NCBI GenBank assembly: GCA_029863625.1
Contig: JAOTUY010000005.1
Span: 1,495-65,494, forward strand
DNA from: Acidimicrobiia bacterium
Lineage (GTDB): Bacteria; Actinomycetota; Acidimicrobiia; Spongiisociales; UBA4744
Direction: 5' to 3'
DNA: 64,000 nt
Made by a program: the position numbers and the translations under genes. Shown piece by piece: positions 11,001 to 61,559 of the stretch; position 1 is the stretch's first letter, and each line of letters starts with the position of its first letter. The notes below the pieces were generated by a model. The model was not told the origin of the DNA and did no database searches. It saw only the letters and a program-made list of their open reading frames with translations.

Positions 11001-11989
11001 CCCGAGCCGGGATGATTTCGTTCAAGGCCGCCATCCGAATGACACAGGACCGACCGCGAGAAGCTCTCGCCAACGCCCAAGAAGCAGCAGACCTGGCCAG
11101 TCTGACCGGGGAGGACGAAGCGCTGGCCCGCGCCTACGGAATTCTTGACTGGGCCCACCTGGCACTCGGAGAACCCCAGAAGGCCGTGCACGGAACAGAA
11201 TCCTTAGAGATCTCGCTGCGGATCGGCGATCTGGCTCAGGCTGCGTTCATTATGAACAACCTGGGCGGCATGGCCTATTTCGACGGTCGCTGGGACGAGG
11301 CGGTGACGTGGTATGCAAAAAGCCGGGAGGCCTTCCGGCGGGCCGGTAACGATGTGGGAGCGGCCTTCGCGGGCGCCAACACCGGCGAAGTGCTGGTGAG
11401 CCAGTACAGGTTCGACGAAGCTGAACCTGTACTGAGAGAGGCAATCCGCGTCTTGCGCGCCTCCGGTTCGGCGAAAGAAGCCACGTTCGCCGAGACCCAG
11501 CTGGCAAGGTTGCTCACGGAGCGAGGCGAGCACGATGAGGCCCACAACATGCTCAGGCGCATCCACGCTGAGGCAGAGGCGCTCGGCCAGACGATTATCA
11601 CCCTGGAGGCTGCGCTTTATCTCGCCCGCCTGCGGGTCCTCCAGGGCGATCCCGGCGGAGCTCTCGGTGTCCTCGAAAGCGCCGAGGAGGCGGCCGGAGC
11701 CGACGCTGTCCTCCTTGCGTCGGCGCTTGCTCGGACGCGTGCCTCTGCCCTGATCGCAATCGGGAGAATCGCTGAGGCAAGAGGAGTCGTTGAGGGTGGA
11801 TTGGCCGAAGCTCGCCGGCAGGGCCTGGACTACGAGGAAGCCTTGCTACTCCGTCTGGCAACCGATGTCGCCCGTTCGGCCGGCCAGAATGCCGAGCCAA
11901 ATCGCACGAACGAAGCCGAGGCGCTCTTCGAGCGCCTCGGCATTCGCTATCCGTTGAGTGATGATTCAGAGGCTCCGTCGCCTACCTGA
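8027..11989 (+). CDS. multidomain signalling protein with two class III adenylate/guanylate cyclase homology domains, a STAND/AAA ATPase and a TPR-like region
   Basis: The first cyclase domain reads GTMVFVDISGFTAMSE...FGGDALLLLF. The second reads VTVAFLHFMG...IRIGVNRGHVFSGDVG...YTIMGDDVNLAARL. A Walker A follows (FAIVGDRGIGKTRLL) after the sequence FTGRNEELTRL, typical of mycobacterial cyclase/LuxR-family ATPases. The long C-terminus is alpha-helical and repeat-rich, and no LuxR HTH is visible at the end. Confidence 0.85.
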   Translation: MSTTPLQILNCFDHLSGTARNSPGRNTTEFNRLRWSEIDLPGGVVAVGVEENVDASTDLYQYYLPRLVQQWDTDAPSSTHRQIDGTMVFVDISGFTAMSERLARFGKVGAEEVTEVLGECFKGLLAVAYPLGGRLIKFGGDALLLLFDGPLHERRAVNAAVGMQHAIRTLGKVKTSAGNMTLRMSIGAHSGAFHFFLVGDSHRELILTGPAATETVKMEGAAEATEIVISKATASVLPKAAVGRPKEPGFLVRAAVPDVDEGTVDVRPPPGNLEQYIPVAVRESILAGANEPEHRQVTVAFLHFMGVDDLLSEQGPAAVSRALSELIGQVQKAIDPRGVAFLATDVYDDGGKIILAAGAPTATGNDSERMLLALREMVGQDHELPIRIGVNRGHVFSGDVGPAYRRTYTIMGDDVNLAARLMSAASPGEIYATPVVVDGSRTLFATRALEPFSVKGKAEPVQAFEVGEETGTRSTRTREELPFTGRNEELTRLTDALEDARLGSGGVFAIVGDRGIGKTRLLQEAVALESDVPAVTVRAEPYGTASPYRPFRDPIRDLLGVEGGEQQKMVRQLAKAVGRLDKELLPFLPLIGDVTHVDVDSTPEVQDIDPQFRRDRLAGVVIRILELAKPGPLAVILEEGQWMDEASTELAQRLSRATADHSWLVMTTRIGSEGGFEPEDTPIITLGPLESQDALSIVVAATDESPLRPHDIDAIVQRAGGNPLFLEEILTVVRQTESVADLPDSLDALVSAQIDALAPLPKQLLRYASVLGRSFRLTVLNEVLRDDPLELDSSAQDSLVGFLESEGGDRMQFRHGLIRDVAYEGLSYRRRRELHAKAAHATERLAGDDPDSVADLLALHYSLAQEYQPTWHYARIAGDDAREAYANVDAATQYERALEAAGRLRTVSAREKAGVWEALGDVRERVGLYDGAVDAYRRAVRLRADDPIARANLLLKRARARMRSSAYAVALGDTTRGLRSLENLDGHEAAKARAGMISFKAAIRMTQDRPREALANAQEAADLASLTGEDEALARAYGILDWAHLALGEPQKAVHGTESLEISLRIGDLAQAAFIMNNLGGMAYFDGRWDEAVTWYAKSREAFRRAGNDVGAAFAGANTGEVLVSQYRFDEAEPVLREAIRVLRASGSAKEATFAETQLARLLTERGEHDEAHNMLRRIHAEAEALGQTIITLEAALYLARLRVLQGDPGGALGVLESAEEAAGADAVLLASALARTRASALIAIGRIAEARGVVEGGLAEARRQGLDYEEALLLRLATDVARSAGQNAEPNRTNEAEALFERLGIRYPLSDDSEAPSPT

Positions 11990-22312: not shown

Positions 22313-22410
22313 TCTCACGGGAGCTCGGTGTACCGGGCTGAGAGGGGGGCCGTCACAGCCTCCGACCGTTTGAACCTGTCCCGGATAATGCCGGCGTAGG
22401 AAGCTCTCTC
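22313..22410 (+). promoter_or_regulatory. TPP (thiamine pyrophosphate) riboswitch, THI element
   Basis: cacgggagctcggtgtaccgggCTGAGAggggggccgtcacagcctccgaccgtttgaACCTGtcccGGATAATGCCGGCGtAGGAAg contains the conserved CUGAGA and ACCUG-AUC-GGAUAAUGCC-GCGUAGGGA boxes of the THI element. It sits directly upstream of the thiB-like gene. Confidence 0.8.
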
Positions 22411-22443: not shown

Positions 22444-23538
22444 ATGTCTGCGAAGAACCCGAAGCGGTCAATACGGAGACTCATCGCGATAGTGGTCTTG
22501 GTGGTGGCGGCCGGCTGTTCCGATCCGGCGACGACGACCAGTAGCCCGGCGCCAACCACCGCCCCCCTCGAACACGTCGAGATCATTCTGATGACCCACG
22601 ACTCGTTCGTGGTGTCGGACGAGCTTCTGGAATCCTTCGAAACCGAGACCGGCATCGAGATAAGGGTCCTCCCCGCGGGCGATGCAGGCACCATGGTCAA
22701 CCAGGCCGTCCTCACCAAAGACAACCCGTTGGCGGACGTCATCTTCGGAGTCGACAACAGTTTCCTGTCGCGGGCGTTGGACGCAGGCCTGTTCGCACCC
22801 TATCTATCCCCCCTCCTGGCGTCGGTCCCAGACGAACTGGAGATCGACCCGCGGGTGACCCCGATCGATTTCGGTGATGTGTGCATCAACTGGGACAAGG
22901 CCTACTTCGCCGACGCGGGGCTGACTCCACCGAAAACCCTCTTCGATCTCACCGATGCCATCTATCGAGACCTGCTGGTTGTTCAAAGCCCGGCGACTTC
23001 TTCTCCGGGACTGGCCTTCCTGTACAGCACCATCGCCACGTTTGGAGAGAACGGTGATTACACATGGATCGACTTCTGGACTGACCTCCGGGACAACAAC
23101 GTGCTGGTGACCTCAGGATGGGAGGAGGCGTACTACTCCTACTTCACGGCTGCTTCTGACGGTGACCGACCCATGGTCGTTTCCTATGCGTCGTCCCCGC
23201 CTTTCGAGGTGATCTACGCTACCGAACCTATCGACGAGCCGCCGACCGCGGTCATGACCCAAGGCTGCTTCCGGCAGATCGAGTATGCCGGGATCGTGGC
23301 CGGGACTGAGGCCCGTCCGGCTGCTGAGAGAGTCATCGACCTCCTGCTCTCCACCCGGTTCCAGGACGGCATCCCGCTCTCCATGTTCGTATTCCCGGCC
23401 AATGCGGATGCGACGCTGCCACCCGCCTTCGTCGAGCACGCCGTCGTCCCGGCAGATCCTCTGTCGCTTCCGGACGGCGCAACCGAAGCGAACGTGCGGC
23501 TCTGGATTCTGGAGTGGACAGAGGTCATGAGCAGGTGA
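22444..23538 (+). CDS. thiB: thiamine ABC transporter substrate-binding lipoprotein
   Basis: Signal peptide with lipobox (LVVAAGCS), SBP family-1 conservation (DVIFGVDNSFL...GLFAPY), and a TPP riboswitch upstream. Confidence 0.8.
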   Translation: MSAKNPKRSIRRLIAIVVLVVAAGCSDPATTTSSPAPTTAPLEHVEIILMTHDSFVVSDELLESFETETGIEIRVLPAGDAGTMVNQAVLTKDNPLADVIFGVDNSFLSRALDAGLFAPYLSPLLASVPDELEIDPRVTPIDFGDVCINWDKAYFADAGLTPPKTLFDLTDAIYRDLLVVQSPATSSPGLAFLYSTIATFGENGDYTWIDFWTDLRDNNVLVTSGWEEAYYSYFTAASDGDRPMVVSYASSPPFEVIYATEPIDEPPTAVMTQGCFRQIEYAGIVAGTEARPAAERVIDLLLSTRFQDGIPLSMFVFPANADATLPPAFVEHAVVPADPLSLPDGATEANVRLWILEWTEVMSR

Positions 23539-27938: not shown

Positions 27939-28013
27939 GGGGGCGTGGTGAAGCCTGGAGTTCACGCCGGCCTGTCAAGCCGGAGGTCGCGGGTTCAAAT
28001 CCCGTCGCTCCCG
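27939..28013 (+). tRNA. tRNA-Asp (anticodon GUC)
   Basis: Hand-folded cloverleaf. Acceptor gggggcg/cgctccc with a G-U pair, D-arm, anticodon stem ccggc/gccgg with loop CUGUCAA (anticodon GUC), variable loop aggtc, T-arm gcggg-ttcaaat-cccgt, discriminator G. CCA is not encoded. Confidence 0.85.
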
Positions 28014-28051
28014 CCGGTGATTCTCCAGCTGCGCCCGGCACGGGCGCACCC

Positions 28052-28127
28052 GGCCAGGTAGCTCAGTTGGCAGAGCACAGGTCTGAAAAACCTGGGGTCG
28101 GCAGTTCGATTCTGCCCCTGGCCACCA
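28052..28127 (+). tRNA. tRNA-Phe (anticodon GAA)
   Basis: ggccagg-ta-gctc-agttggca-gagc-a-caggt-CTGAAAA-acctg-gggtc-ggcag-ttcgatt-ctgcc-cctggcc-a-CCA. A perfect cloverleaf of 76 nt with encoded CCA. Confidence 0.9.
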
Positions 28128-29742: not shown

Positions 29743-30933
29743 TCATCTCGAATCCTCTTCAGGCGCCGCTTCGTGCAGGTTCAATGAGACAACGTCGATC
29801 CGATCGGGACGGGGCACCATTGCGATCAGCCGCCCGTCGGGAGCCACCGAGATGAAATCCTGGGGGACGTATGCGTTGGCCGCGACTTCCGGGAGCGGGT
29901 AGGTGGCGGTGGCCAGAACTCGCCCGGCCAGATCGACATACAGAACCGTCAGATCGACGGCGAGCACCCCGTCGTCGAGCCAGACGTCAGAGAGGAGCAC
30001 CGCCACGGCGCCCGGGACGGTTCCCTCGTAGGTGAGTGAGCCTTGTTCCCGGATGGGGATCTCAAGAGTGGCCTCACCTATCGCGAACCGGGCCAGACGT
30101 TCCGTTGTGGCGAGCGGGCGAAGCGTGAGGCCGTCTATCTGATAGCCGGGAAGCAGCCGGGGTGAGAACCGCCCACCCTCATCGAAGGCCGCATACACCA
30201 TGGTGCCCGCTTCGAGTTCAACCCACAGATCCCCGTTGGGCCCCATTTCGATCCCGGTCAATCCATTCTCGAGATGCAGACCGTCGGGGAGGGTATGGGC
30301 GCCGAGGTAGTTGCCGGTATTGGAGTAGGAGACGAGCCGGTAACGGTCGAGCACCGGCACGGCCTCGAGTCCCCACACCCCACCGTCGTGAGCAACCACG
30401 TCGATGAGCGGACCCACCTCGTCTGCGTCGGTGTCCACATCGACGAGGATCGAGCCGTCCGCGCCGACTCGGAGAAGGCGTAGCCCTTGCGTATCGGCGA
30501 TCCACACCGAAACGTCCGCCGCCACCGAAAATCCTGCCGGACCGGTCAGGAGCCAATCCGGTTCGCCGCCCTCATAGGTAACACCCCCCTCACCAACCGG
30601 GATGGTAAACAGGACACTCACCGGGGCAGACCCGGGCTCGGAGATCGGCAGCTGCACTGGGATCGTCGTTGCAGTCGGAGACGTGGTCGGCGGGCCGGTC
30701 GACGTGACCGGTGTCGACGGCGATGAGGTCTCTCGGGTGGTTACACCGCAACCGGCGCCCATCAGCGAGATGGTTCCGAAGAGAACCACCAACAGCCATC
30801 GAGTGGCACGGCCGTAGGTTGGTCGCCACGGTGAGGGACCCCGGAGGAGGCGACCCAGCTGGTTGAACGGAGCGGCTCCAGAAGGCGATCGGGTTCGGCT
30901 CCTCCCCCGAAAGGGCGCAGCGCGGTTAATCAT
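29743..30933 (-). CDS. lipoprotein, hypothetical (Thr/Pro-rich linker followed by a beta-rich domain)
   Basis: Signal peptide with lipobox (WLLVVLFGTISLMGAGCG) and a TSPSTPVTSTGPPTTSPTATT linker. The annotated N-terminal extension before the signal peptide suggests the true start may be further downstream. Confidence 0.6.
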   Translation of the reverse strand: MINRAAPFRGRSRTRSPSGAAPFNQLGRLLRGPSPWRPTYGRATRWLLVVLFGTISLMGAGCGVTTRETSSPSTPVTSTGPPTTSPTATTIPVQLPISEPGSAPVSVLFTIPVGEGGVTYEGGEPDWLLTGPAGFSVAADVSVWIADTQGLRLLRVGADGSILVDVDTDADEVGPLIDVVAHDGGVWGLEAVPVLDRYRLVSYSNTGNYLGAHTLPDGLHLENGLTGIEMGPNGDLWVELEAGTMVYAAFDEGGRFSPRLLPGYQIDGLTLRPLATTERLARFAIGEATLEIPIREQGSLTYEGTVPGAVAVLLSDVWLDDGVLAVDLTVLYVDLAGRVLATATYPLPEVAANAYVPQDFISVAPDGRLIAMVPRPDRIDVVSLNLHEAAPEEDSR

Positions 30934-33173: not shown

Positions 33174-33725
33174 TCACCCGGTGACCGTGATCATCCCGGT
33201 CATGGAGGGGTGGATGGTGCAGATGTAGGCGTAGGTCCCCGGGGTGCTGAACGTGAAACTGAAGCGATCGTCGGGGAACAGGGTGGCTGCCCACACCCCA
33301 TCGTTCGAAGTCGTGGTGTGGTTGAAGCCGTCCCTGTTCCGCCACCTGACCGTCGTTCCCTTGCTAACCGTGGCGTTCGCCGGTTGGAAGGCCGACCCCG
33401 AGATGTCGATCTCGAACTCGCCGCCGCCGGCGGTGGTCGACGTCGTGCTCGAAGAGGTGGACGACGTCGCGCTCGAAGAGGTGGACGACGTCGCGCCCGA
33501 AGAGGTGGACGACGTCGCGCCCGAAGAGGTGGACGACGTCGCGCCCGAAGAGGTGGACGACGTCGCGCCCGAAGACGTGGACGTGGTCTCTGCAGACGTT
33601 GTCGACGTGACCTCCGCAGTGGAAGTACTCGCGGTATTCGCGGTCTCCCCGGTGTCGTCACCACATGCAGCGACCACCAGGACAAACGCGGCAAACCACA
33701 CCATCCAACAGATCCGGCGATTCAT
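33174..33725 (-). CDS. cupredoxin (plastocyanin/azurin-like) lipoprotein with a Ser/Thr-rich repeat linker
   Basis: The N-terminal MNRRICWMVWFAAFVLVVAACG is a signal peptide with lipobox. The linker repeats SGATSSTSS four times. The C-terminal domain ends in YAYICTIHPSMTGMITV, the type-1 copper site C-x2-H-x4-M, with an upstream His (FNHTT). Confidence 0.75.
   Translation of the reverse strand: MNRRICWMVWFAAFVLVVAACGDDTGETANTASTSTAEVTSTTSAETTSTSSGATSSTSSGATSSTSSGATSSTSSGATSSTSSSATSSTSSSTTSTTAGGGEFEIDISGSAFQPANATVSKGTTVRWRNRDGFNHTTTSNDGVWAATLFPDDRFSFTFSTPGTYAYICTIHPSMTGMITVTG
33427..33590. repeat. 24-bp tandem repeat (about 5.5 copies) inside the cupredoxin gene
   Basis: gaagaggtggacgacgtcgcgc[c/t]c repeats head-to-tail from about 33451 to 33570, with degenerate copies at each end. 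In frame on the minus strand it encodes the SGATSSTSS units. Confidence 0.75.
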
Positions 33726-34142
33726 GCTTCCCCCTCGTTCCATGTGCTTCACACGACCCACGTCGCCGACGGCGACGAGTCTCCATCTGCCGTTCCAGGG
33801 TCGCCAACACGTTCGGGTACTCCCCTCGCGACACGCCCACCATCAACTGGACCACCGAAAACGCTTCGTCGGCCCACCTGAGTCCTCTCTTGTCGAGCCA
33901 GTACGCATCTTGTCGGAGACAGTACGCAGCCCGAGAGCGATTCGGTTCCCGGGAGACTGCTTTTACTCGGCGCCGGTGCCCCAACGGGATCGGACCTTCT
34001 GGCTGACACCCGAACCTTCGGCAGCATATTTGGCGATCTCGGGCGGGAAGCTCAGTTGGTGCCGAGGGGCTTGTTGGCGTGACCTGCGTCTGTGCTGCCG
34101 CTCAGACGGATTTGCGTCCTCCTATGACAGGTCCAGTACCTG

Positions 34143-35848: not shown

Positions 35849-36331
35849 TCAAGCAGAATCGGTTTCTCTGAAGAACAGCCGACCGACGGTACGACCGAGC
35901 GCTCGCATGATCGCTTGCCGGGGTTGCTCGCCGGTCTGGGTGGCGGTCTGGTGGAAGAAGTCGGCGCCCAGCCGCCAGGCGAGTATGCCGTCCGTGAGGA
36001 CCTGGTCGCCCACCACCCACACGTTTGAGTCCGAGTTGACCAAGCCGAGACGACGACGCGTGGTCCAAGGCTTGTTGCCTCGGTTGATCATGCGCTCCAC
36101 ACCGCGCGGAGGTCCGTTGGAGAGGACGATCACTCGCTCCACGGCAGGCAACGCTTCAAACCGATCGATGATTCGGTTTATCTGATCGGCGAATTCTGCC
36201 GGCGGGGCTCCTTGACGCACGAGCGTGTTGTCGGCGTCGAAGATAAGGACCAGTGGTCCCGCTGTGGTTTTAGCACGCGCTCTCACCATCGCGAGATCTT
36301 TGACCGTTGTGATTGGCGTTCTGCGGAACAT
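35849..36331 (-). CDS. HAD-superfamily phosphatase (YqeG-like)
   Basis: LVLIFDADNTL is HAD motif I, VIVLSNG is motif II, and VWVVGDQVLTDG is motif IV. The start is taken at MFRRTPI because the 120-aa N-terminal extension of the long ORF (to 36691) is Arg-rich and non-homologous. Alternative starts are 36505 and 36691. Confidence 0.6.
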   Translation of the reverse strand: MFRRTPITTVKDLAMVRARAKTTAGPLVLIFDADNTLVRQGAPPAEFADQINRIIDRFEALPAVERVIVLSNGPPRGVERMINRGNKPWTTRRRLGLVNSDSNVWVVGDQVLTDGILAWRLGADFFHQTATQTGEQPRQAIMRALGRTVGRLFFRETDSA

Positions 36332-36894
36332 GAACAAGGGAGGGTCGAAGGCCCCTGGTGATGCTAGTGGGGTGGTGAACACCAGCCGGCGCCACCCTGT
36401 GGCGGGCCGTGCCCCGGCACGTCTATCGGCCCCAATACCCCCATGGCGAACACATCCCGGCCTCTCCTTCGCAACGTGGGTAGGACTCCGTCGGTGGATC
36501 GTCATCGACTGCTGACCGTCGGTCGGTTCTTGCTCGCGGCGAAGAGGGGCGTCGGGGAGGTGGACATCACCAAGAAACCGGTGATCGACGTCAGGGCCGA
36601 GACGGCCGGTGCTCCGTCCGTCCTTCGCCCACTCGACGCCAGGCCGGGAACCGGCTCGGTTCACCTTTGAATCCTCAAGGAATCGCACCATGAAGTGGGC
36701 CTTCCTCGGGCTCCGTCGGCAAGCGAATCGCTCATTGCTCGTGTGACATCGGCGTTGACCCTACCGGGGATGCTCGGCGGGTGGATAGAGCCTCACGGCT
36801 GCAAAGGGGTGACCTCAGGGTCGGCCCGGCAAGGGCCGGAAACGTCGACGGGCACACCAGGTGGCAACGGTGCCAGCATCAGGAACAAGACGCA

Positions 36895-37752
36895 TTAGCC
36901 ACCCCCAGGGACTCCCACGTCGATACCCTGTCTGCGGCCCAGCTCCCTCAAGTCCGCCAAGGGGTAAAAACCGAGAGAGGTCACTACATCATCCGCGACC
37001 GTTTCGGCAACCGTGCCGTGCGCGTCAAACTCATACGTGATGCAGCCTCCGTCGAACACGAAATACCAGTTCCCCTCGTAGACGACCTCCGGGGCCAGCT
37101 CTTCTATCCTCTGCAGCGCCTCATTGGCCGCCAGGCCGCGAGCTCCCTCCCCTTCTGGGGTGCTCCGCATTTCGAGGGTGTCTTCGTTGACGTCGAGTTC
37201 GCTGATGATCCACACGAACTGGTTCGTGAACAGCGCGCGGTTCACTCTCGACCGCACGGCGAACGTAATGTCGGGATCGACCGTGAATAGGACCCGGCGG
37301 CCATCAACTCGGACGTCTTCGAATTCTTCGGCGAGTGTTCTTGCGTGAATCAGCGGACCTTCCGCAGATGGGATGATGGTCACTTTGATATCGGACCCGA
37401 TCGAGCGGATCAATTCGTATTTCTCTATATCGGGGTGCGGGACGGGGGTGGCATTGCCAATGTCACACTTCTCGGTGAGGGTTGCCGTGAAGAACGGCGC
37501 CATCATGTCGGCGTGCGTAATTGAGAAACTTGCCTTGCCGCTCTCGACTTCGAAATCGAGGTTGTCCCAGCCGAGCTGCAGTGAATTGATGCAGGGGGCG
37601 TACATGGCGGTTGGCACAGCCTGCAAAGAAAGAACCATTGCCGGGCTCGGATTGTTGACGATGCGCTCGCATTCGGGAATGCCCACGCCGAGTCGGCTGC
37701 AGGATCCGAAGAGTACGACGGCTGCGACCGCCAACGCGGTCCGCCTACTCAC
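36895..37752 (-). CDS. lipoprotein, hypothetical
   Basis: GTG start with ggagg six nucleotides upstream. Signal peptide with lipobox VSRRTALAVAAVVLFGSCS. The GTG overlaps the stop of the upstream kinase-like gene as GTGA. Confidence 0.55.
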   Translation of the reverse strand: MSRRTALAVAAVVLFGSCSRLGVGIPECERIVNNPSPAMVLSLQAVPTAMYAPCINSLQLGWDNLDFEVESGKASFSITHADMMAPFFTATLTEKCDIGNATPVPHPDIEKYELIRSIGSDIKVTIIPSAEGPLIHARTLAEEFEDVRVDGRRVLFTVDPDITFAVRSRVNRALFTNQFVWIISELDVNEDTLEMRSTPEGEGARGLAANEALQRIEELAPEVVYEGNWYFVFDGGCITYEFDAHGTVAETVADDVVTSLGFYPLADLRELGRRQGIDVGVPGGG

Positions 37753-39506
37753 AGGAAGCCTCCCCCTGTGAGTTGGGAGATTATGAACACAAGGAGAAAG
37801 AGGCAGGCCAGGACCGCTCCGATGGTGAGTCGAACCCGCCTTTGGCTCCACCGCTGTATCGAGATCGGTTCTGCGGGTGGGGCGAGTTCTCGGAACTCTT
37901 TGACAACGTCGATGTCTCTCTCTTTCTTGAGCAAAGCCAGCGAGCTTCGGGACTGAGACGGAAGAGTGATGCTGTGGGTGGCTGCAAAGGCTTCGGCGAT
38001 ATCCTCGGGAGCAAATTGTCGCAAGGCGCGCCTGTAGACCATGGTCGTATCCGTCCGGAGAGCCAGGATGACCATCATGTTGGCGAGGTCAACAGCCTGG
38101 CGCCACGGAGTCGGGCGAACGGTTCCGAAGGCAACGTCGATGAGCACCACCCGGCCTTCGCGGATCATCACATTGGCCGGCTTTATGTCACGATGGGCCA
38201 GGCCTGCATCCCACATCAGGCGAATGACGGACAGGGCGTCATCAATAATGCGTTCGTCGATATCGGCCTTGGTCAACTCCTCGGATCCGTCGAGAAATGC
38301 AGAGACCATCATGAACTCACGCTCGGGGGTGATCTCGACAAGGCCGAGCGGTTCGGCAGACGGGATACCCGCGTCGCGCATTACCCGCTGGATATAGTCC
38401 TCATACTCGACGAGGCGTCGAACCGAAGCGAACTTGACCTCGTCTTCGAGAGAACCGTAGAGAATGGTCCGACCCAACTTGTACCAACGGTCCGAACGCA
38501 GATGAGTCTGACTGTACAACTTGGCGAACAGGTAGCAGCACTCTTCTCCCCCCTCGCCAACCACCTCGAGCCGCATGGGCGTGGAGCCCCCCGAACCCTC
38601 TTGTCCGTAGGGCTCAATTCCTATCACCTCCACGCCCAGCTGTTCCCGGGCTGCCTTGCGAATTGCTTCGCCCCGCGCCCCCGTCACGTCCAGGTGAGCG
38701 GTTGCGCCCGGCTTCCAGGTGACGGGGAACACACTCTCGGGAGCAAAGAGCCGGAATACAACGACGGCTACCGCCGGCGCAAAGATGAGCGACACCAAGA
38801 CATCCGACGGATGGTCGACGCCGAGATACAAACGGGCGATGCCGAGCAGTAGCAGCGCAACGGCCGAGAGCCTCCAAAACACGCGGCGCCACTTTCCCTC
38901 ATGCACCAGGGTGAACGCCATGACGCTGAGGGTCACACTCAATGCCGCGATGGGAGCCGATGGATGCGACGGCCCTTTCCACGATCCGATGATGGGGACG
39001 CCCGGCCGTATCCGACCGATCGCCTGCTGCAAACCGTCGACTGTGGTTGCGACGATCAGGATCGCAATGAGCACTGCAAAGACGTGGCGCCACCTGCGCA
39101 CGAGGATCAGCGCCAGGAGCGTTCCAACGCGTAGCGATCGCACAAACCACTCGGAACCGAGCGAATGTATCGCTCGTGCGATGGAGGTCGATGCACTCGT
39201 CCGCAAGTCGACAAACCAACGGAGGATATCTGTGTCGACACGGGTCCACCAGTTGGTTGTGGCCGGCACCGCGAAGAGCGACAACCAGATCGCCACCATG
39301 ATCAGACCGGCGACCAGCCATATGCGCCCCGACGTGCGGAGCTCCCGAGGCAAGGGAGCCTTCTCGCCCGACGGGCGCCGCCGCCGACCGGCAACCCTTA
39401 CTCCGGCAACGCGAAACTCGCGGCGACGACCAACCAGGCCGAGCTCACGAACCACCCTGGTTCCCAACTCGACTTCCTCAACAGAAATGCCCCGCTCCAA
39501 GTCCAT
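37749..39506 (-). CDS. PAP2 phosphatase / protein-kinase-like fusion membrane protein
   Basis: The N-terminal half has TM helices and PAP2 motifs (GRIRP; PSHPS; ARLYLGVDHPSDV). The C-terminal half is kinase-like: a Gly-rich loop (GQEGSGGS), a Lys motif (YLFAKLY), a catalytic loop (AHRDIKPANVMI) and a DFG-like VLIDVAFG. A C-terminal TM helix follows. The start is taken at MDLERG; the ORF extends to 39707. Confidence 0.7.
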   Translation of the reverse strand: MDLERGISVEEVELGTRVVRELGLVGRRREFRVAGVRVAGRRRRPSGEKAPLPRELRTSGRIWLVAGLIMVAIWLSLFAVPATTNWWTRVDTDILRWFVDLRTSASTSIARAIHSLGSEWFVRSLRVGTLLALILVRRWRHVFAVLIAILIVATTVDGLQQAIGRIRPGVPIIGSWKGPSHPSAPIAALSVTLSVMAFTLVHEGKWRRVFWRLSAVALLLLGIARLYLGVDHPSDVLVSLIFAPAVAVVVFRLFAPESVFPVTWKPGATAHLDVTGARGEAIRKAAREQLGVEVIGIEPYGQEGSGGSTPMRLEVVGEGGEECCYLFAKLYSQTHLRSDRWYKLGRTILYGSLEDEVKFASVRRLVEYEDYIQRVMRDAGIPSAEPLGLVEITPEREFMMVSAFLDGSEELTKADIDERIIDDALSVIRLMWDAGLAHRDIKPANVMIREGRVVLIDVAFGTVRPTPWRQAVDLANMMVILALRTDTTMVYRRALRQFAPEDIAEAFAATHSITLPSQSRSSLALLKKERDIDVVKEFRELAPPAEPISIQRWSQRRVRLTIGAVLACLFLLVFIISQLTGGGFL

Positions 39507-39684
39507 GTGCCATCCCTCGCGCTCCTGGCGGGCTTGACATCCCGAAGCTGAGCCTATAGCAGTGAGTGGGTCGCCGTCTGCAATGTCCCCTTCAAAGACG
39601 GACAGTCCGCGGATGGAACTCCGATGAGCGGAACTACCTCGAGATCCGCAATGGGACGGTCGATGGTCTCCTAGCCTGTGGTGC

Positions 39685-40800
39685 ATGCGGTTGCTGCTCG
39701 TCACCAATGACTACCCACCCAAGCCGGGCGGCATCCAGCAAACCCTGGCGAACCTCGTCGACCGGTGGTCCGATCCGGTGCGGGTTCTGGCACCCAACGA
39801 TCCGGCAGCCAAGAGTGACGCCAGGGTCGTCCGCCACGAGCGGACCTTCATGCGGCCTACCCGTCAAGTCCGTCAGTGGGTTGAGGCGCACGTCGCCGAT
39901 TTCCGGCCGGAAGTGATTCTGTTCGGGGCGCCCCATCCGCTCGCCATGCTCGGGCCCGGCCTGCGCAAGCGAACCGGACGACCCTATGTAGTGATGACCC
40001 ACGGTGCCGAGGTGACCTTTCCCGCTGTCATCCCCGGGTTGCGCCAAGTCCTCGCCTGGTCGTTGGGATCGGCCGGCACTGTTTTCGCCGTCTCTCAGTT
40101 CACTGCCGGCCGGGTGGCCCGGCTCTCGGGTCGCAGCGTTGAGGTACTCGGTGCCGGCGCCGACATCGAGAGTTTCCACCCGCAGGTTCTTCCGACCGCT
40201 GAAGGGAAGTCGTCTGAGGGGGAGACGCCCACCCGCAAAGACCGAGCGACCTTCACTCTCGGCTGCGTGAGCCGCTTCGTTCCGCGCAAAGGCCTTACCC
40301 GGCTCTTGCGAGCTGCCGCTGAGTTGCAGGCCCGGGGTCACCGAGTCGAGGTGCTGATCGTCGGGTGGGGTCCACTCGAACAGCGGATGCGGGACCTGGC
40401 CACCCGGCTCGGGGTGCCCACTCGTTTCGAGGTCAACGTGCCGTGGGAGCGCCTCCCGACGCTATATCGCGAGATGGATGCCTTTGTCATGCCGGTCCGC
40501 TCACGGTGGTTTGGTCTGGAGATCGAAGGCCTCGGCCTCTGCTACTTGGAAGCGGCAGCCACTGGACTCCCGATCGTGGCCGGAACGTCAGGTGGTGCAC
40601 CCGAAACGGTCGATCCGGGGGAAACGGGCTTCGTGGCGGATTCAGTGGCTGGCATCGTCGAGGCGGTCGAGATGTGGCTTGCCGATCCGGCCACGGCTCG
40701 GGCGATGGGCGAATCGGGGCGAGAACGAATTGAGGATCATTTCACGTGGGATCTCGTGATGGACCGGTTTCGGAAGGGAATCTCGGCAGCTGTTGAATAG
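39685..40800 (+). CDS. glycosyltransferase family 4 (GT-B fold, GT1/GT4)
   Basis: MRLLLVTNDYPPKPGGIQQ is the GT4 N-terminus. The C-terminal EGLGLCYLEAAATGLPIVAGTSGGAPETV carries the E-x7-E donor-binding motif. Confidence 0.85.
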   Translation: MRLLLVTNDYPPKPGGIQQTLANLVDRWSDPVRVLAPNDPAAKSDARVVRHERTFMRPTRQVRQWVEAHVADFRPEVILFGAPHPLAMLGPGLRKRTGRPYVVMTHGAEVTFPAVIPGLRQVLAWSLGSAGTVFAVSQFTAGRVARLSGRSVEVLGAGADIESFHPQVLPTAEGKSSEGETPTRKDRATFTLGCVSRFVPRKGLTRLLRAAAELQARGHRVEVLIVGWGPLEQRMRDLATRLGVPTRFEVNVPWERLPTLYREMDAFVMPVRSRWFGLEIEGLGLCYLEAAATGLPIVAGTSGGAPETVDPGETGFVADSVAGIVEAVEMWLADPATARAMGESGRERIEDHFTWDLVMDRFRKGISAAVE

Positions 40801-40930: not shown

Positions 40931-41704
40931 TCACCCAGTGTTGCCCAGGTCCCGGCGCTCGAACACTATTCCCCCGGCGATGACGACCGCCGAGACCCAC
41001 AACCCTAGGACGGCGCCGCCCTGCCAAACCTCCACGTTTTCCGTGCCACCCGGCGCGAAGAGGGCCCCGCCCGCCGCAAAGGGAAGGACCTGTTTGATCC
41101 AGTCGCCGGGGATCAACGCTGCTAGGGCCGGATCCACAACGAGCGGGATGATGATGGCGAGGGTGATCGCGAGCGACTGGTTGGTCAGGATCAAACCGAG
41201 CCCAAAGCCGAACAGCGCCAAGGCCACCAGGTACAGCACTGCACCACCGGCTGCCTGGAGGAGATTGGCGGCACCGAAGTCGATGTCGAACCCCTTCTGG
41301 TCGAGCCATAATATCCCAACGATAACGTCGACGGCAACCATGAGGAGGCTCGTGACGAGGGCGACGGCGGCGAGGACGATCCCCTTGGCAGCAATTACCT
41401 CGCCGCGAATCGGAGCCGCCGAAAAACTGGGGAGCACCGTCTTCGACTTGTATTCCCCGCCCATCGCCATCACGCCGAGCACGGCTAGCAAGATTCCGGC
41501 GACGGGTGTCGAAAAGCCCAGGATCGCTCCAAGCAGGGCGTCGGTGTTGTTGAGCGCCTCCTTGGGGACATCTGGCTCGGTATCGTAGAAGCCCACAGCA
41601 AGAGCGAGCATGCCCCAGCTAAGGATGAGGGTCGAGGCCAACATGACCCAGTGGCTGCGCAGCGTCTTGAACTTGATCCATTCGGAGCGGAAGAGCTTGT
41701 TCAC
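40931..41704 (-). CDS. ABC-2 type transporter permease
   Basis: 257 aa with six TM helices, a typical ABC-2 start (FRSEWIKFKTLRSHWV), and an ATGA overlap with the upstream ATPase gene. Confidence 0.75.
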   Translation of the reverse strand: MNKLFRSEWIKFKTLRSHWVMLASTLILSWGMLALAVGFYDTEPDVPKEALNNTDALLGAILGFSTPVAGILLAVLGVMAMGGEYKSKTVLPSFSAAPIRGEVIAAKGIVLAAVALVTSLLMVAVDVIVGILWLDQKGFDIDFGAANLLQAAGGAVLYLVALALFGFGLGLILTNQSLAITLAIIIPLVVDPALAALIPGDWIKQVLPFAAGGALFAPGGTENVEVWQGGAVLGLWVSAVVIAGGIVFERRDLGNTG

Positions 41705-42645
41705 GGGGCTACCTCCCCGCTCGGCGCGGCATTCTCCCCGGGCGTCCCGCCGGTCCGGTACTCTCGTTCATCCGCGGTGAGCTCGAGGAATGCGTCCTCC
41801 AACGAGGTGGTCTTTTCGCGCAACCCATGCAGGGGAATGCCGAGCAACGCCGCCAGGTCGCCAATCGCTGCGGCCGAGGTGTCCGACACCCGCAACTCGC
41901 CATCCTCAGCGAGCACAGTCGCACCCCGGTTCTCGAGCTCAACCTTCAGCTCGTCCGGCCGGGGAGTGCGTACGAGGATGGCTGTCTGACTCTCGGCCAT
42001 GAACTCGTCGACGGACGTCATGGCCATGAGACGGCCCTTACCGATCACGATCAGGTAATCGACGAACAGGGAGAGCTCGGCGAGCAGATGGCTTGACACG
42101 AACACGGCCCGCCCCTCGTTCGCCAGGCCCCGCAGGTATTTGCGAATCCAGCGCATGCCTTCCGGGTCCAGGCCGTTGGCCGGTTCGTCGAGCATCATGT
42201 AGATCGGGTCGCCGAGCAGCGCGGAGGCGAGGCCGAGCCGCTGCCGCATACCGAGTGAAAATGCCCCGACGGTCTTGTTGGCGGCCGGCGTGATGCCGGT
42301 TACCTCCATCACCTCGTCGACGCGGGAGTCGGGCACCCGGGAGCAGGCGGCCAGCATGCGCAGGTGGTTGCGAGCTGTGCGCTTCGGGTGGACCGCCTGG
42401 GCTTCGAGGAGAGTGCCGACCGCTCGGGCCGGGTATTGAATATCGCGGAAGCGCTGCCCGTCGACGGTCACCCGGCCGGCGTCGGGCCGATCGAGGTCGA
42501 GCATGAGACGCATCGTGGTCGACTTCCCTGCCCCATTCGGGCCGAGGAACCCCGTTACCTTTCCCGGGACCACCTCGAAACTCAAGTCATCTACGACGGT
42601 CTTCGGTCCATACGCCTTCGTCAGGCCGTCAACCACGATGGCCAT
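41701..42645 (-). CDS. ABC transporter ATP-binding protein
   Basis: Walker A GPNGAGKST, signature region, Walker B MLDEPANGLD. The start is at MAIVVDGL, preceded by aagagggaggaagaa. The upstream GTG of the longer ORF lacks an RBS. Confidence 0.85.
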   Translation of the reverse strand: MAIVVDGLTKAYGPKTVVDDLSFEVVPGKVTGFLGPNGAGKSTTMRLMLDLDRPDAGRVTVDGQRFRDIQYPARAVGTLLEAQAVHPKRTARNHLRMLAACSRVPDSRVDEVMEVTGITPAANKTVGAFSLGMRQRLGLASALLGDPIYMMLDEPANGLDPEGMRWIRKYLRGLANEGRAVFVSSHLLAELSLFVDYLIVIGKGRLMAMTSVDEFMAESQTAILVRTPRPDELKVELENRGATVLAEDGELRVSDTSAAAIGDLAALLGIPLHGLREKTTSLEDAFLELTADEREYRTGGTPGENAAPSGEVAP

Positions 42646-42994
42646 TTCTTCCTCCCTCTTTGGTGACACCCAACTTCAGACTTCCTGCCAACCGATCCAC
42701 ATGCACTTGTACGCCGCACCAGCGGCCTAGCGCTAGAGGCAAAGGACCTTTACCAGGCGCGGTTCAACCGCACAGAACGACACCCGCCGGGGCCGGTTGG
42801 AAACTCGCGGCCGCCGCTCCGAAGCGGCAGGGAGGATGTGGGGGTGCGCTGATCGTGGTGGATGGCTGTCACCCTCGCACACCCGCCGTCGACGACCTCA
42901 ATCGGGAGCCTTAGGGTCGCCACACCACCCGGACGGCTGGACGGCCGTAAGAGGTCAGGCCGGCACGATTGGCCTCGGTTAGGCTGACCACACG

Positions 42995-43563: not shown

Positions 43564-44595
43564 GTGAGAAGCAGAGCCTTTGGTCCGACCGCGTTAACGC
43601 TTGGAATTCTGTTGCTCGCAGCAGGATTGGTGATGTTGTTCTTGATCATTCCAGGCATAGCCCAGTTCCCGGACGACGTTGACTCGACCCGCGCCTATGA
43701 GGGTGAATTGAGTGTGATGCTCAACGCCGATGCGCTGGCGACGATGGAGCTGGCCAACATCTTCATCCGCGACGTTCCGGTGACCATCGACCGCCATGTC
43801 CAGACACTCGAAGTCGACGGCGAAAAAGCGCTGGTAAGCGACGTGGCCGTAATGTCCGGCCCGGCCGGTCCACTGCAACAAGCCGAGGACATCTACTCGA
43901 TCGACCGCAAGACCATGGAGAGCATCACCAACTTCACCGACGATGCCAGGGTGACCGACCGGCAAGGGCTGGTGGTGGGATTCCCGATCGGTACAGAGAA
44001 GGCGGACTACACCGGTTGGAACGGCGACACGCTCGAGACCAACACGCTCACGTTTGTACGGGAGGAAGAACACGAGGGTCTGAATACCTACGTGTTCACC
44101 GCGGCCTCCGGCCCCGACCTGATCAAAGACCCGATTCTTCTATCGGCCTTCCCGGCCGGATTGCCCAAAGCCGCCATCGAAGGCCTGATCCCGGCCCTCG
44201 GTTTGCCGGCAGAGGCCATCGCCCAGCTCGGGCAGGTACTCCCGCTCCTCCCGGATCCCATCCCGCTGGCATACACCTACAGGTACGAAACCATGTACTG
44301 GGTAGAGCCCGATACGGGTGTCCTGATCGACTACGACAAGCTGGAGTCACGCTCGGTCGCAATCAGCCTCGGCGACCAGCCGGTGCCGATCGCCGAAGTG
44401 ATGCACGTCGAGTATGTGCAGTCCCCTTCATCCGTGGCCGAGGCGGTAGCCGATGCTGAAGACGCCCAGGGCCAGCTCTTCTGGCTCGGGATGGTCTTGC
44501 CCTATGGGTTGATTGCGGTCGGAGCGGTCATCGGCTTGCTCGGAGTTGTCGCCTTCACACGCAAGCCGGCTGAGGAGAGTCCTCCAAGGACCTAG
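43564..44595 (+). CDS. DUF3068-like envelope protein (TM helices at both ends)
   Basis: GTG start after aggagggg. N-terminal helix TLGILLLAAGLVMLFLII and C-terminal helix GMVLPYGLIAVGAVIGLLGVVAF around a roughly 280-aa extracytoplasmic domain. The size and topology are typical of the actinobacterial DUF3068/PorA-like family. Confidence 0.6.
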   Translation: MRSRAFGPTALTLGILLLAAGLVMLFLIIPGIAQFPDDVDSTRAYEGELSVMLNADALATMELANIFIRDVPVTIDRHVQTLEVDGEKALVSDVAVMSGPAGPLQQAEDIYSIDRKTMESITNFTDDARVTDRQGLVVGFPIGTEKADYTGWNGDTLETNTLTFVREEEHEGLNTYVFTAASGPDLIKDPILLSAFPAGLPKAAIEGLIPALGLPAEAIAQLGQVLPLLPDPIPLAYTYRYETMYWVEPDTGVLIDYDKLESRSVAISLGDQPVPIAEVMHVEYVQSPSSVAEAVADAEDAQGQLFWLGMVLPYGLIAVGAVIGLLGVVAFTRKPAEESPPRT

Positions 44596-59780: not shown

Positions 59781-61559
59781 GTGAAGACAGTTCACGAATT
59801 CCACATACCCGTCATGGGTACCGGGTTCACCATCGACACCCCGCTCAAAGTGGCCCGCTTTGGGATTGATTCCGTTATTCAGATCGTCGACGACGTACTC
59901 ATCGAACAAATGAGGCAGGTCCATAGCGAGCGGGCCGGAGAGCCGTACCGAGAAATCACCGACGACGATGACGATGCTCGAGCCAACCGGATCACGGCAT
60001 ACCTGAATCTGATCCACCTGCTCGTCCAGCGCCAGATGGAAGTCGTGAAAGGACTTCCATTCGAGACGGACACCGACCTCACCCGCTACTTCGAAATGCT
60101 GCCGGAAGGCCCACTCAAGGGCTCGTATCGACAGATGTTGGCCGCCGAGGACGACCGGCGGGCGGCGCTGGAAGCCGCCCTGCGGCGGCAGGTGGTACCG
60201 GGGTCGATCGATGTCAACATCATGACCAAACTGGACCGCGATACGTATCTTGGCAAAAGAAAACGCCCCCCCGAATTCAGTGACGCGCTGTCGGGTCTGC
60301 GGGGCTTCGCCAGAAGCAACCTACGGTCGGCGGTGGTGTTCTCGGCAGGCCTGAACCCTCGTCTGTTCGGTTACCTCACCGAGTTCAGCGACTTCTTCCC
60401 GGATGAGTATGGCGAACTCCGCAAGCGAATCATCCTCAAAGTGAGCGACTACCGCTCCGCGTTCGTGCAAGGCAAGTACCTCGCCAAACGCGGGCTGTGG
60501 GTCTCGGAGTACCGGGTCGAGTCCGGCCTCAATTGTGGTGGGCATACGTTCCCGACCACCGGCCAATTGATGGGCCCGATTCTGGAAGAGTTTTGCGCCA
60601 GGCGGTCTGAACTGATCGAGACCCTCCACACGATTACCAACGAGGCCCTCATCGCCGTCGGCCGCTCATCACTGGATCGCCCCCTCCCCATGCGGATTAC
60701 TGCCCAGGGCGGTATCGGAACGAACAACGAGCATAGGCTGCTGCTCGACCATTTCGAGCTGGATGCGACAGGGTGGGCCACTCCTTTCCTCCTGGTTCCT
60801 GAGGTGACCAATGTCGATGACTCGCACCGCGAGATGCTCCTCGAAGCGGTCGGCGATGATGTGGAGCTGAGCGACGCCTCCCCCTTCGGGATTCCCTTCT
60901 GGAACCTTCGCAATTCGGCCAGCGACCTTCTCCGACGGGCCCGGATAGCGATCGGCAAACCGGGCAGTCCGTGTCCGAAGGGCTACCTCGCGTTGCACAA
61001 CACCGAGTTCTCCGAGGTACCAATTTGCACGGCGTCCCGCAAGTACGTAGTCCAGAAGCTCGCCCACCTGGAAGAGGAGGGATACACACCCGAGCAGCGG
61101 GCGATGGTGGAGGAAGACGTGCTAGCCAAGACCTGCCTGTGCCGTGACCTGGCCGGTGGCGCGGAACTCAACTCCGGCCTCAACGACGAAGCGGCGACGG
61201 CTGTGTGTACCGGTCCCAACATCGTCAATTTCTCCAAGGTGGCGACCCTCCGGGAGATGGTCGACCACATATACGGCCGTATCTCCCTGCTCACCAACCC
61301 GGATCGCCCCCACATGTTCATCCGGGAGATCGAGTTGTATGTCGACTATGTGGGGAAGGAATTCCGGCGTTTCGCCCTCGGGCTCTCGGCCCGAAAAGAG
61401 AGCTACTTCAGTGAAGTCAAGGAGAACCTTAGGTCTGGAGTTGAGTACTACATGGGTCTGATCGACCGTCTCCCCACGCCCGACCGAGCGCTGTTCGAGG
61501 ATCAGCTGGAGGGTCTGCGCCACGCCGTTCAGCAGATCGGCGCACTGGCTCCCGTCTAA
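59781..61559 (+). CDS. hypothetical conserved protein (possibly an FMN-dependent NMO/PfaD-like TIM-barrel oxidoreductase)
   Basis: 592-aa ORF with clean coding composition. There are weak motif resemblances to the nitronate monooxygenase/PfaD enoyl-reductase family: an N-terminal HIPVMGTGF, a mid-protein ESGLNCGGHTF (compare EADxGGHT) and a C-terminal ITAQGGIGT (compare IAAGGI). This is not a confident assignment. Confidence 0.5.
   Translation: MKTVHEFHIPVMGTGFTIDTPLKVARFGIDSVIQIVDDVLIEQMRQVHSERAGEPYREITDDDDDARANRITAYLNLIHLLVQRQMEVVKGLPFETDTDLTRYFEMLPEGPLKGSYRQMLAAEDDRRAALEAALRRQVVPGSIDVNIMTKLDRDTYLGKRKRPPEFSDALSGLRGFARSNLRSAVVFSAGLNPRLFGYLTEFSDFFPDEYGELRKRIILKVSDYRSAFVQGKYLAKRGLWVSEYRVESGLNCGGHTFPTTGQLMGPILEEFCARRSELIETLHTITNEALIAVGRSSLDRPLPMRITAQGGIGTNNEHRLLLDHFELDATGWATPFLLVPEVTNVDDSHREMLLEAVGDDVELSDASPFGIPFWNLRNSASDLLRRARIAIGKPGSPCPKGYLALHNTEFSEVPICTASRKYVVQKLAHLEEEGYTPEQRAMVEEDVLAKTCLCRDLAGGAELNSGLNDEAATAVCTGPNIVNFSKVATLREMVDHIYGRISLLTNPDRPHMFIREIELYVDYVGKEFRRFALGLSARKESYFSEVKENLRSGVEYYMGLIDRLPTPDRALFEDQLEGLRHAVQQIGALAPV

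Follow-up and report, generated by a model that had tools for sequence, protein, structure and literature searches.

A PAP2-fold membrane protein with a kinase-like domain and a lipoprotein partner in Acidimicrobiia, a candidate receptor-type kinase

A 64,000-nucleotide stretch of DNA from an Acidimicrobiia bacterium (assembly GCA_029863625.1, contig JAOTUY010000005.1, positions 1,495 to 65,494 of the forward strand; hereafter the window) carries an operon in which a gene for a membrane protein with a PAP2-like and a kinase-like domain overlaps a lipoprotein gene. A single membrane protein of 585-650 residues combining these two folds had been described in the original prediction, and the 585-residue product bears this out with profile and Foldseek matches to the phosphatase PgpB as well as matches to kinases. 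The features of the operon are as follows, in window coordinates.

37749..39506, minus strand: gene for the PAP2-like/kinase membrane protein, 585 aa; product identical to database protein P0001
39348..39389, minus strand: predicted cytoplasmic juxtamembrane motif GRRRRPSGEKAPLP, residues 40-53, from the alignment of representatives
38742..39347, minus strand: six-helix PAP2-fold domain, residues 54-255, from profile, fold and motif alignment
38802..38837, minus strand: motif ARLYLGVDHPSD, read in the sequence
37872..38681, minus strand: kinase-like domain, predicted cytoplasmic, residues 276-545, from motifs, model and profile
38577..38606, minus strand: motif GQEGSGGSTP, read in the sequence
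38514..38528, minus strand: motif FAKLY (K329), read in the sequence
38172..38195, minus strand: motif HRDIKPAN, residues 438-445
38124..38138, minus strand: motif DVAFG, residues 457-461
37770..37844, minus strand: predicted seventh transmembrane (TM) helix, residues 555-579, from the structural model and basic-residue distribution
37749..37752, minus strand: GTGA overlap (reads ctGTGAgt) of the TGA stop of the kinase gene (37749..37751) and the GTG start of the lipoprotein gene (37750..37752)
36895..37752, minus strand: lipoprotein partner gene, 285 aa; lipobox signal sequence, no Pfam family
39507..39684, no strand: divergent intergenic region between the kinase gene and a GT4 glycosyltransferase gene, 178 bp; promoter scan empty

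The longest open reading frame (ORF) of the kinase gene spans 37749..39707 (minus strand) and gives 652 residues counted from a TTG. The true start is, on alignment evidence, the ATG at 39506, because the resulting 585-residue product is identical to P0001, a GAGGGA Shine-Dalgarno sequence lies 8 nt upstream and the N-termini of 23 aligned homologues support it; the TTG-started form would overlap the divergent GT4 gene. The stop/GTG overlap with the lipoprotein gene was as predicted, and a GGAGG Shine-Dalgarno sequence (GGGGGAGG) lies 7 nt 5' of this GTG. Scanning of the operon for promoters and terminators, including the 178-bp intergenic region, gave no signal above background, and Rfam detected no RNA element within or near it. 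An assembly artefact as the origin of the fusion was ruled out, the same architecture being present in at least 8000 database matches and at least 564 GTDB species.

Against Pfam PAP2 (PF01569) the 585-residue protein scored 25.9 bits (25.9-26.2), below the gathering score of 27.2. However, a family profile built from 24 homologues matched Bacillus subtilis PgpB (PDB 5jki) at E 1.5e-10, and Foldseek aligned the AlphaFold2 (AF2) model, with a predicted local distance difference test score (pLDDT) of 69 overall and 70-90 across most of both domains, to the same structure at TMt 0.79 with a root-mean-square deviation of 3.5 Å over 205 columns. When 39 diverse relatives were searched against Pfam, matches were obtained to Pkinase in 31 and PAP2 in 22 (both at E<1e-3), RIO1 in 19, Kdo in 16 and APH in 14. 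Homology of both domains was accepted on the basis of the PDB profile matches, the Foldseek matches and these family-wide counts, and PAP2-fold homology of the six-helix domain is, by profile and model, secure despite the sub-threshold Pfam score; the profile check suggested with the original prediction thus fails at the Pfam threshold and succeeds by profile comparison and fold.

The residues required for PAP2 catalysis are replaced. In the profile alignment to PgpB, motif C1 (canonically K-x6-RP) corresponds to Q160...R165-I-R167-P168 and lacks the K-x6-RP pattern, C2 (P-S-G-H) corresponds to P182-S183-A184-P185, placing Pro185 at the C2 His position, and C3 (S-R-x5-H-x3-D) corresponds to A224-R225-x5-D231-x3-D235, so that the C3 Ser is Ala and the position of the nucleophile His is occupied by D231. 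H232 sits where canonical enzymes carry an aromatic residue (GVH[YF]PSD). This third motif had been read as shifted; on the alignment it is instead a His-to-Asp replacement of the nucleophile, and H232 is not a displaced nucleophile.

These replacements extend through the family. Among representatives of 50%-identity clusters, position 231 is D/A/E/N/Q/G with no His in 58 sequences and position 185 is P/A/S/T/E/V with no His in 51. Genome-encoded members were collected from 80 loci of 80 GTDB species, which are also the basis of the neighbourhood counts below; the canonical C2 and C3 His positions contain no His in any of the 81-82 members, and of 82 members the strict C3 pattern is found in none, PSGH in one and K-x6-RP, anywhere in the sequence, in eight. 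The C1 Lys position is A/Q/S/Y/T/I in 38 of 48 representatives, Lys being possible in the other 10, while R167 is kept in 43/49 and P168 in 46/48. Stand-alone PAP2 genes at the same loci have all three canonical motifs in 28 of 41 cases. Across the diverse set, the PAP2-like domains share a mean pairwise identity of 0.28 and the kinase domains one of 0.54. Within the clade to which the window's protein belongs, R165, R167, P168, H181, S183, D231, H232 and D235 are invariant, and the PAP2-like site is therefore, on this comparison, still under selection, in a remodelled form to which the canonical phosphohistidine mechanism is, judged by its residues, unavailable.

In the AF2 model six helices are followed by the kinase domain and then by the seventh helix (555-579). 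Basic residues cluster in the N-terminal tail (13 K+R), in VRRWRH after TM2, in HEGKWRR after TM4 and in QRWSQRRVR before TM7, and because these are the predicted cytoplasmic loops, the N-terminus and the kinase domain are predicted to lie inside and the C1-C3 motifs, the pocket and the C-terminus (TGGGFL) outside, as in solved PAP2 enzymes. The orientation of the kinase, a check proposed at the outset, is thus predicted to be cytoplasmic from the modelled helices together with the distribution of basic residues. By the same logic the PAP2 pocket and the kinase site are placed on opposite membrane faces and so cannot act on one lipid pool. The tail carries a juxtamembrane motif, RRRRP(S/T)GE-x-PPLP (residues 41-53), in which P45 and G47 are present in 45/45 diverse representatives, R44 in 44/45, R43 in 43 and Ser/Thr46 in 39/44; with a mean identity of 0.67 its conservation equals that of the kinase active site, and it is proposed as a candidate phospho-acceptor or pseudosubstrate. 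A Tat (twin-arginine translocation) signal was rejected by inspection, the RRRR lying about 16 residues before the hydrophobic helix and the Tat consensus being missing.

The original prediction had envisaged a PAP2 lipid-phosphate phosphatase that is catalytically active and opposed by the kinase, the two remodelling one lipid or glycolipid together with the GT4 enzyme. In its favour, the protein does have the PAP2 fold and homology, the window's clade shows no variation at the polar residues of the pocket, IMG labels relatives as phospholipid phosphatase or undecaprenyl-diphosphatase, and the PimB'-like GT4 gene is adjacent here and in one close relative. Such a bifunctional enzyme is nonetheless improbable: catalytic His is missing family-wide, the C1 Lys is absent from at least 38 of 48 representatives, H181 is retained in only 17/51 and H232 in only 26/54 diverse representatives, the two sites are predicted on opposite sides of the membrane, a canonical PAP2 enzyme is encoded nearby in 33/80 loci, and GT4 is absent from all 80.

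The kinase-like domain presents the reverse picture of residue retention. All of the kinase motifs originally quoted (Gly-loop, AKL, HRDIKPAN and DVA-FG) are at the expected places, together with PWRQAVDLANMM. K329, H438-R439-D440, K442, N445 and D457 are invariant in 81/81 genome-encoded kinase domains and are present in 56-58 of 57-58 representatives, so that the catalytic Lys and Asp, on whose loss the kinase proposal would have foundered, are kept and the domain, with a complete catalytic set, looks active. The Gly-loop variant GSGGSTP is conserved at S305, G307, S308 and P310, and the invariant E354, E356 and E369 are candidates for the alphaC Glu. HRDIKPAN is the catalytic loop form of Ser/Thr protein kinases, as in PknB. 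The N-lobe sequence EYEDY...AGIPSAEP and the AVDL following DFG resemble RIO, Bud32 and Kdo kinases.

Assignment of this domain to a family was less straightforward. The suggested domain search gave sub-threshold Pfam matches to Pkinase (PF00069; 22 bits against a gathering score of 31.7, covering only profile positions 96-144), RIO1 (PF01163; 18.4 against 22) and APH (16.9 against 23.2), with no match of the 585-residue protein to Kdo (PF06293). NCBIfam gave only weak Bud32, PknB and Kdo-kinase matches (Bud32, TIGR03724, 26.4 against a threshold of 125), and a few relatives pass the curated RIO1 or Kdo thresholds. The family profile matched Bud32-like and PknB chains in the PDB at 3e-5 to 4e-3, and Foldseek supported the kinase fold with RIO, Bud32 and eukaryotic-type protein kinase (ePK) structures at E ~1e-5 (among them RIOK1, E 3.5e-6; Rio1, TMt 0.54; and Bud32, 3en9). 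In the model D457 is followed after only about 9 residues by another helix (467-482), and no activation segment, P+1 loop or APE motif was seen in its secondary structure or in the sequence, giving a compact fold of the kind found in the RIO, Bud32 and Kdo atypical kinases. By these comparisons the domain is an atypical member of the superfamily of protein-kinase-like (PKL) domains that falls below every curated family threshold. An anti-phage defence kinase was also considered and rejected, PADLOC having returned only 40-50-residue catalytic-loop matches (PD-T4-6, PglW) and no match for the lipoprotein.

The second gene of the operon encodes a lipoprotein with the N-terminus MSRRTALAVAAVVLFGS followed by Cys, that is MSRR, a hydrophobic helix and LFGS immediately before the lipobox Cys. 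Cys18 of the lipobox and Cys 28, 54, 96 and 237 are invariant in 25 homologues, position -1 is G/A/S, and the family shares the motif GGCITYEFDA. No Pfam model covers this family, and Foldseek of its confident AF2 model (pLDDT 89) against the PDB gave no informative structural neighbour; a relationship to class II aminoacyl-tRNA synthetase anticodon-binding domains was rejected, only a subdomain of about 100 residues with a generic alpha/beta fold being aligned at TMq ~0.3. In 65 of 78 loci with room for it (among the 80 fetched), the gene immediately downstream of the kinase gene, on the same strand, encodes a lipoprotein homologue, and its start often overlaps the stop of the kinase gene. 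In at least 20 representative clusters, those whose proteins reach 700-735 aa, a hidden Markov model of the lipoprotein family also matches the C-terminal extension, directly after TM7 and without the inserted alpha/beta subdomain. This Rosetta-stone fusion shows, at the sequence level, that the lipoprotein is a detached ectodomain of the kinase protein, and, counting the domain as fused or split, the order of cytoplasmic kinase, TM helix and extracytoplasmic domain is present. On gene order, the conserved partner of the kinase gene is the lipoprotein and not the GT4 gene.

Relatives were found in 564 or more GTDB species, for the most part metagenome-assembled genomes (MAGs) of Acidimicrobiia and other Actinomycetota; a small number of MAGs assigned to other phyla probably reflect mis-binning. 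Exhaustive searching at E<1e-30 yielded 400 clusters (at 50% identity, about 400), and a cluster look-up of 10 divergent representatives returned no cultured organism and no informative name. Several architectural variants were observed, with a STAND NTPase and tetratricopeptide repeats (TPR) fused N-terminally in proteins of about 1380 aa (P0121, P0122), a receiver and a LuxR/GerE helix-turn-helix (HTH) fused N-terminally (P0139), or an additional canonical PAP2 domain (P0162). A paralogous type B, which often adjoins the gene pair described here (type A), has the PAP2-like and kinase cassette (HRHLSPANVMV, DFG) followed by an LPG_synthase_TM flippase-like domain in about 840 aa; 186 matches of this type (P0375-P0494), named undecaprenyl-diphosphatase in IMG, were found in Acidimicrobiia, as for example in locus L003 (10589..13108, minus strand). 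Two type A paralogues occur in several genomes, sometimes in tandem in one locus (L011/L051, L002/L017, L020/L040, L061, L072, L076), which suggests receptor diversification.

Beside the canonical PAP2 genes mentioned above, recurring neighbours include YbhN-like LPG_synthase_TM genes (40/80 loci) and a YqeG/phosphatidylglycerophosphate (PGP)-phosphatase-like HAD homologue, which adjoins the kinase gene in 5/80; neither a canonical PAP2 nor a YbhN gene is found in the 64-kb window. In the two closest relatives a gene for an MMPL protein (a lipid exporter of the resistance-nodulation-division type) directly follows the lipoprotein gene (L081, 8754..11684; L082, 8762..11728). The window has an MMPL gene at 2037..4151 (minus strand), about 33 kb away. 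Two neighbours of the operon in the window are of related interest.

39685..40800, plus strand: GT4 glycosyltransferase, PimB'-like, from Pfam and PDB 3oka matches; context, not a conserved partner
35849..36331, minus strand: HAD-IIIA/YqeG/PGP-phosphatase-like gene, about 160 aa from the Met at 36331; possible accessory

The divergent GT4 gene was as predicted, with a strong Pfam Glycos_transf_1/Glyco_transf_4 match (103 bits), and its product matches Corynebacterium glutamicum PimB' (PDB 3oka/3okc) over its full length (residues 3-363 against 7-373, E 5.8e-51). PimB' is the GDP-mannose-dependent phosphatidylinositol (PI)-monomannoside mannosyltransferase, and this full-length match suggests that the host organism may make glycolipids of the phosphatidylinositol mannoside (PIM) type. 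No GT4 homologue was found within 8 kb of the kinase gene at any of the GTDB loci; the gene is divergently adjacent in one 81%-identity relative and nearby in one 83%-identity relative, and the link is thus, from these neighbourhoods, shallow and confined to close relatives. The original proposal of a cell-envelope lipid unit stands as regards lipid context and coupling to the lipoprotein and falls as regards the glycosyltransferase as a partner. The HAD gene, downstream of the lipoprotein gene, matches PF09419 (mitochondrial PGP-phosphatase type) at 22.5 bits (threshold 20.4) and could encode a candidate PGP or phosphatidylinositol phosphate (PIP) phosphatase; its 280-aa ORF is probably over-extended, homologues aligning only from about residue 117. 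The gap of about 560 bp between it and the lipoprotein gene (36332..36894) contains no recognised gene, RNA family or terminator.

Two further explanations turn on the kinase-like domain. It might be a lipid or glycolipid kinase of the Kdo, WaaP or APH type whose substrate, at the cytoplasmic face, is a lipid of the envelope or a sugar linked to lipid (for example an intermediate of PIM or lipoglycan synthesis, or a polyprenol), with the PAP2-like bundle serving as membrane anchor and lipid-binding scaffold. The kinase without an activation segment would suit this, as would the sub-threshold to threshold Pfam matches (Kdo 16/39, APH 14/39, WaaY), the lipid-gene neighbours (the PimB'-like GT4 in the window, YbhN-like and MMPL genes) and the type B paralogue, in which the same cassette is fused to a flippase-like domain. 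However, from established motif knowledge, HRDIKPAN has the Lys of Ser/Thr protein kinases, unlike the Kdo, WaaP and APH forms; the receiver-HTH and STAND-TPR fusions fit protein signalling better, and adjacency to GT4 is not conserved, so that we regard a lipid kinase as unlikely. Alternatively, an ATPase switch resembling RIO, Bud32 or UbiB might use ATP hydrolysis to move the membrane bundle and so extract or translocate a lipid, which would be passed to the lipoprotein or to the flippase-like domain of type B. RIOK1, Rio1 and Bud32 are the top structural and sequence matches, P0122 has a weak ABC1/UbiB match, the kinase is clamped between TM segments, type B carries LPG_synthase_TM and, in the closest relatives, MMPL lipid exporters follow the lipoprotein. 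The evidence for such a switch is wholly indirect, there is no precedent for a PAP2-fold transporter, and phosphotransfer accounts better for the invariant RRRRP(S/T)GE motif and for the fusions to regulators; we consider it still less likely than a lipid kinase.

The explanation that we favour, tentatively, is that the gene pair encodes a receptor-type atypical kinase in which a pseudo-phosphatase PAP2 bundle senses lipid and the lipoprotein supplies the ectodomain. Domains, the loss and retention of residues, topology logic, synteny and fusions make up its basis, and from these we infer ligand, direction of signalling and substrate. The N-terminal tail with its RRRRP(S/T)GE motif would be cytoplasmic. 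The six-helix bundle would present an outward pocket that keeps phosphate-binding-type residues (R165, R167, P168, S183 and D235), to which H181, D231 and H232 would be added in the Acidimicrobiia clade, and this pocket would most likely bind, and not hydrolyse, a phosphorylated lipid of the envelope, for instance a polyprenyl phosphate or a phospholipid head group. The disulfide-bonded lipoprotein would act as the detached ectodomain at the outer face. The kinase, clamped between TM6 and TM7, is taken as the output because of its complete catalytic set, and would probably phosphorylate Ser/Thr on proteins, possibly including its own N-terminal motif. Protein signalling is favoured on account of the N-terminal STAND-TPR and receiver-LuxR/GerE fusions in relatives, and the envelope-lipid context on account of the recurring neighbours (canonical PAP2, YbhN/LPG_synthase_TM, MMPL, PGP-phosphatase-like HAD and PimB'-like GT4). 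A more specific proposal, which is possible although doubtful, is that a phosphorylated carrier or membrane lipid of the outer leaflet (a polyprenyl diphosphate, or a PI/PIM-type lipid) is detected and reported by Ser/Thr phosphorylation to regulators, as a core signalling device of Acidimicrobiia whose regulators are fused in some lineages (receiver-LuxR, STAND-TPR).

Several points weigh against this receptor-type reading. The AF2 model is only moderate in quality (pLDDT 69) and is poor over residues 164-180, the C1/C2 loop. R165, R167, H181, D231, H232 and D235, invariant in the window's own clade, may form a non-canonical hydrolytic site. A missing activation segment, as modelled, is also typical of RIO/Bud32 ATPase-like and small-molecule kinases, and a protein substrate is not established by it. 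Literature searches returned no description of the family or its architecture, and no ligand, substrate or phosphosite is reported for any member; the Lipocone paper and an oral-microbiome PKL preprint were considered as possible descriptions, and both concern other families.

Other genes and elements of the window were also recorded. A 1320-aa protein encoded at 8027..11989 (plus strand) combines an adenylate/guanylate cyclase with an AAA_16 STAND NTPase and MalT-like TPR, a STAND-TPR module of the same type as that fused N-terminally in P0121. A PorA/DUF3068-family membrane protein (154 bits) is encoded at 43564..44595 (plus strand), and an ABC-2 permease/ATPase pair (40931..42669, minus strand) lies between this gene and GT4. 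At 33174..33761 (minus strand) a plastocyanin/azurin-like cupredoxin lipoprotein has a long Ser/Thr-rich tandem-repeat linker (TSTSSGATSS), whose reverse frames yield spurious Arg-rich ORFs. RNA features comprise a thiamine pyrophosphate (TPP) riboswitch at 22316..22403 (plus strand; 55.4 against a gathering score of 54.3), upstream of an ORF at 22444..23538, and a tRNA-Asp/tRNA-Phe pair at 27939..28127 (plus strand). Two long ORFs, 59781..61559 (plus strand, 592 aa) and 29743..30933 (minus strand, 396 aa), gave no Pfam family at E<1e-4.

Oceans, sediments and soils harbour abundant Acidimicrobiia and related Actinomycetota, whose cell envelopes are almost unstudied. Each component of this protein is individually familiar, and the family is common and conserved in an understudied lineage and probably mis-annotated: databases name its members 'PAP2 family phosphatase' or 'hypothetical protein', and since the phosphatase catalytic residues are gone the former label is probably misleading, and its correction would stop the annotation from spreading. 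The locus also flags candidate envelope-lipid genes, namely those for the PimB'-like mannosyltransferase, the HAD protein resembling PGP phosphatases, the YbhN-like proteins and the MMPL transporters. Should the sensor-kinase reading hold, the gene pair would represent a novel means by which bacteria follow pools of lipid phosphates across the membrane, a clear bacterial case of an enzyme fold recycled as a receptor, and the first described bacterial pseudophosphatase-kinase receptor, a new class of envelope sensor.

Comparison with known systems places the protein between several families. PgpB/YodM and other membrane PAP2 phosphatases (5jki) share its six-helix fold, the C1 RP, C2 PS and C3 Asp residues and an extracytoplasmic position of the motifs, whereas here Gln stands in place of the C1 Lys, Pro185 of the C2 His, Asp231 of the nucleophile His and Ala of the C3 Ser, and a kinase is fused. 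The mammalian PLPPR/PRG proteins are non-catalytic PAP2-family members thought to act by binding or signalling; as generally known, they too keep the PAP2 fold with catalytic residues substituted, but they are proteins of eukaryotes, lack a kinase domain and differ in their substitutions. RIO and Bud32 kinases (6zxg_z RIOK1, 4jin Rio1, 8k20_B, 3en9 Bud32) are, like the present kinase, compact and without an activation loop, with a similar N-lobe ('..EYEDY..AGIP..P') and AVDL after DFG, whereas here the catalytic loop is the ePK-type HRDIKPAN in place of HxDLSxxN, and the protein is embedded in the membrane between TM segments and unconnected with ribosomes or KEOPS. PknB and related actinobacterial Hanks-type receptor kinases have an identical HRD(I/V)KPAN loop and the same order of kinase, TM helix and ectodomain; unlike these, the protein described here lacks an activation segment and APE motif, has the Gly-loop GSGGSTP and an extra N-terminal six-TM PAP2-like domain, and carries, in place of PASTA, an ectodomain with a novel Cys-rich fold.

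Two published arrangements are comparable in organisation. In Segetibacter, the PKL-fold kinase SEAE1 is encoded beside a PAP2 phosphatase and a secreted protein, an unrelated arrangement presented as new in 2026 (bioRxiv 10.64898/2026.09.18.752743). A PKL kinase is there likewise associated with PAP2 and with an extracytoplasmic protein of uncharacterised function, but they are encoded by separate genes, with a PAP2 of the canonical kind, the organism belongs to the Bacteroidota, the kinase is of another family and the arrangement is lineage-specific. In Mycobacterium tuberculosis MviN/MurJ, a membrane domain is combined with a pseudokinase on the cytoplasmic side and a further domain outside the cell (review PMC12599244). 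Without detectable sequence relationship to the present family, this actinobacterial protein similarly joins a polytopic envelope-lipid-handling domain to a cytoplasmic kinase fold, a TM helix and an outer domain; in MviN/MurJ, however, it is the kinase fold that is degraded and the membrane domain that is active, whereas in the protein described here the reverse appears to apply.

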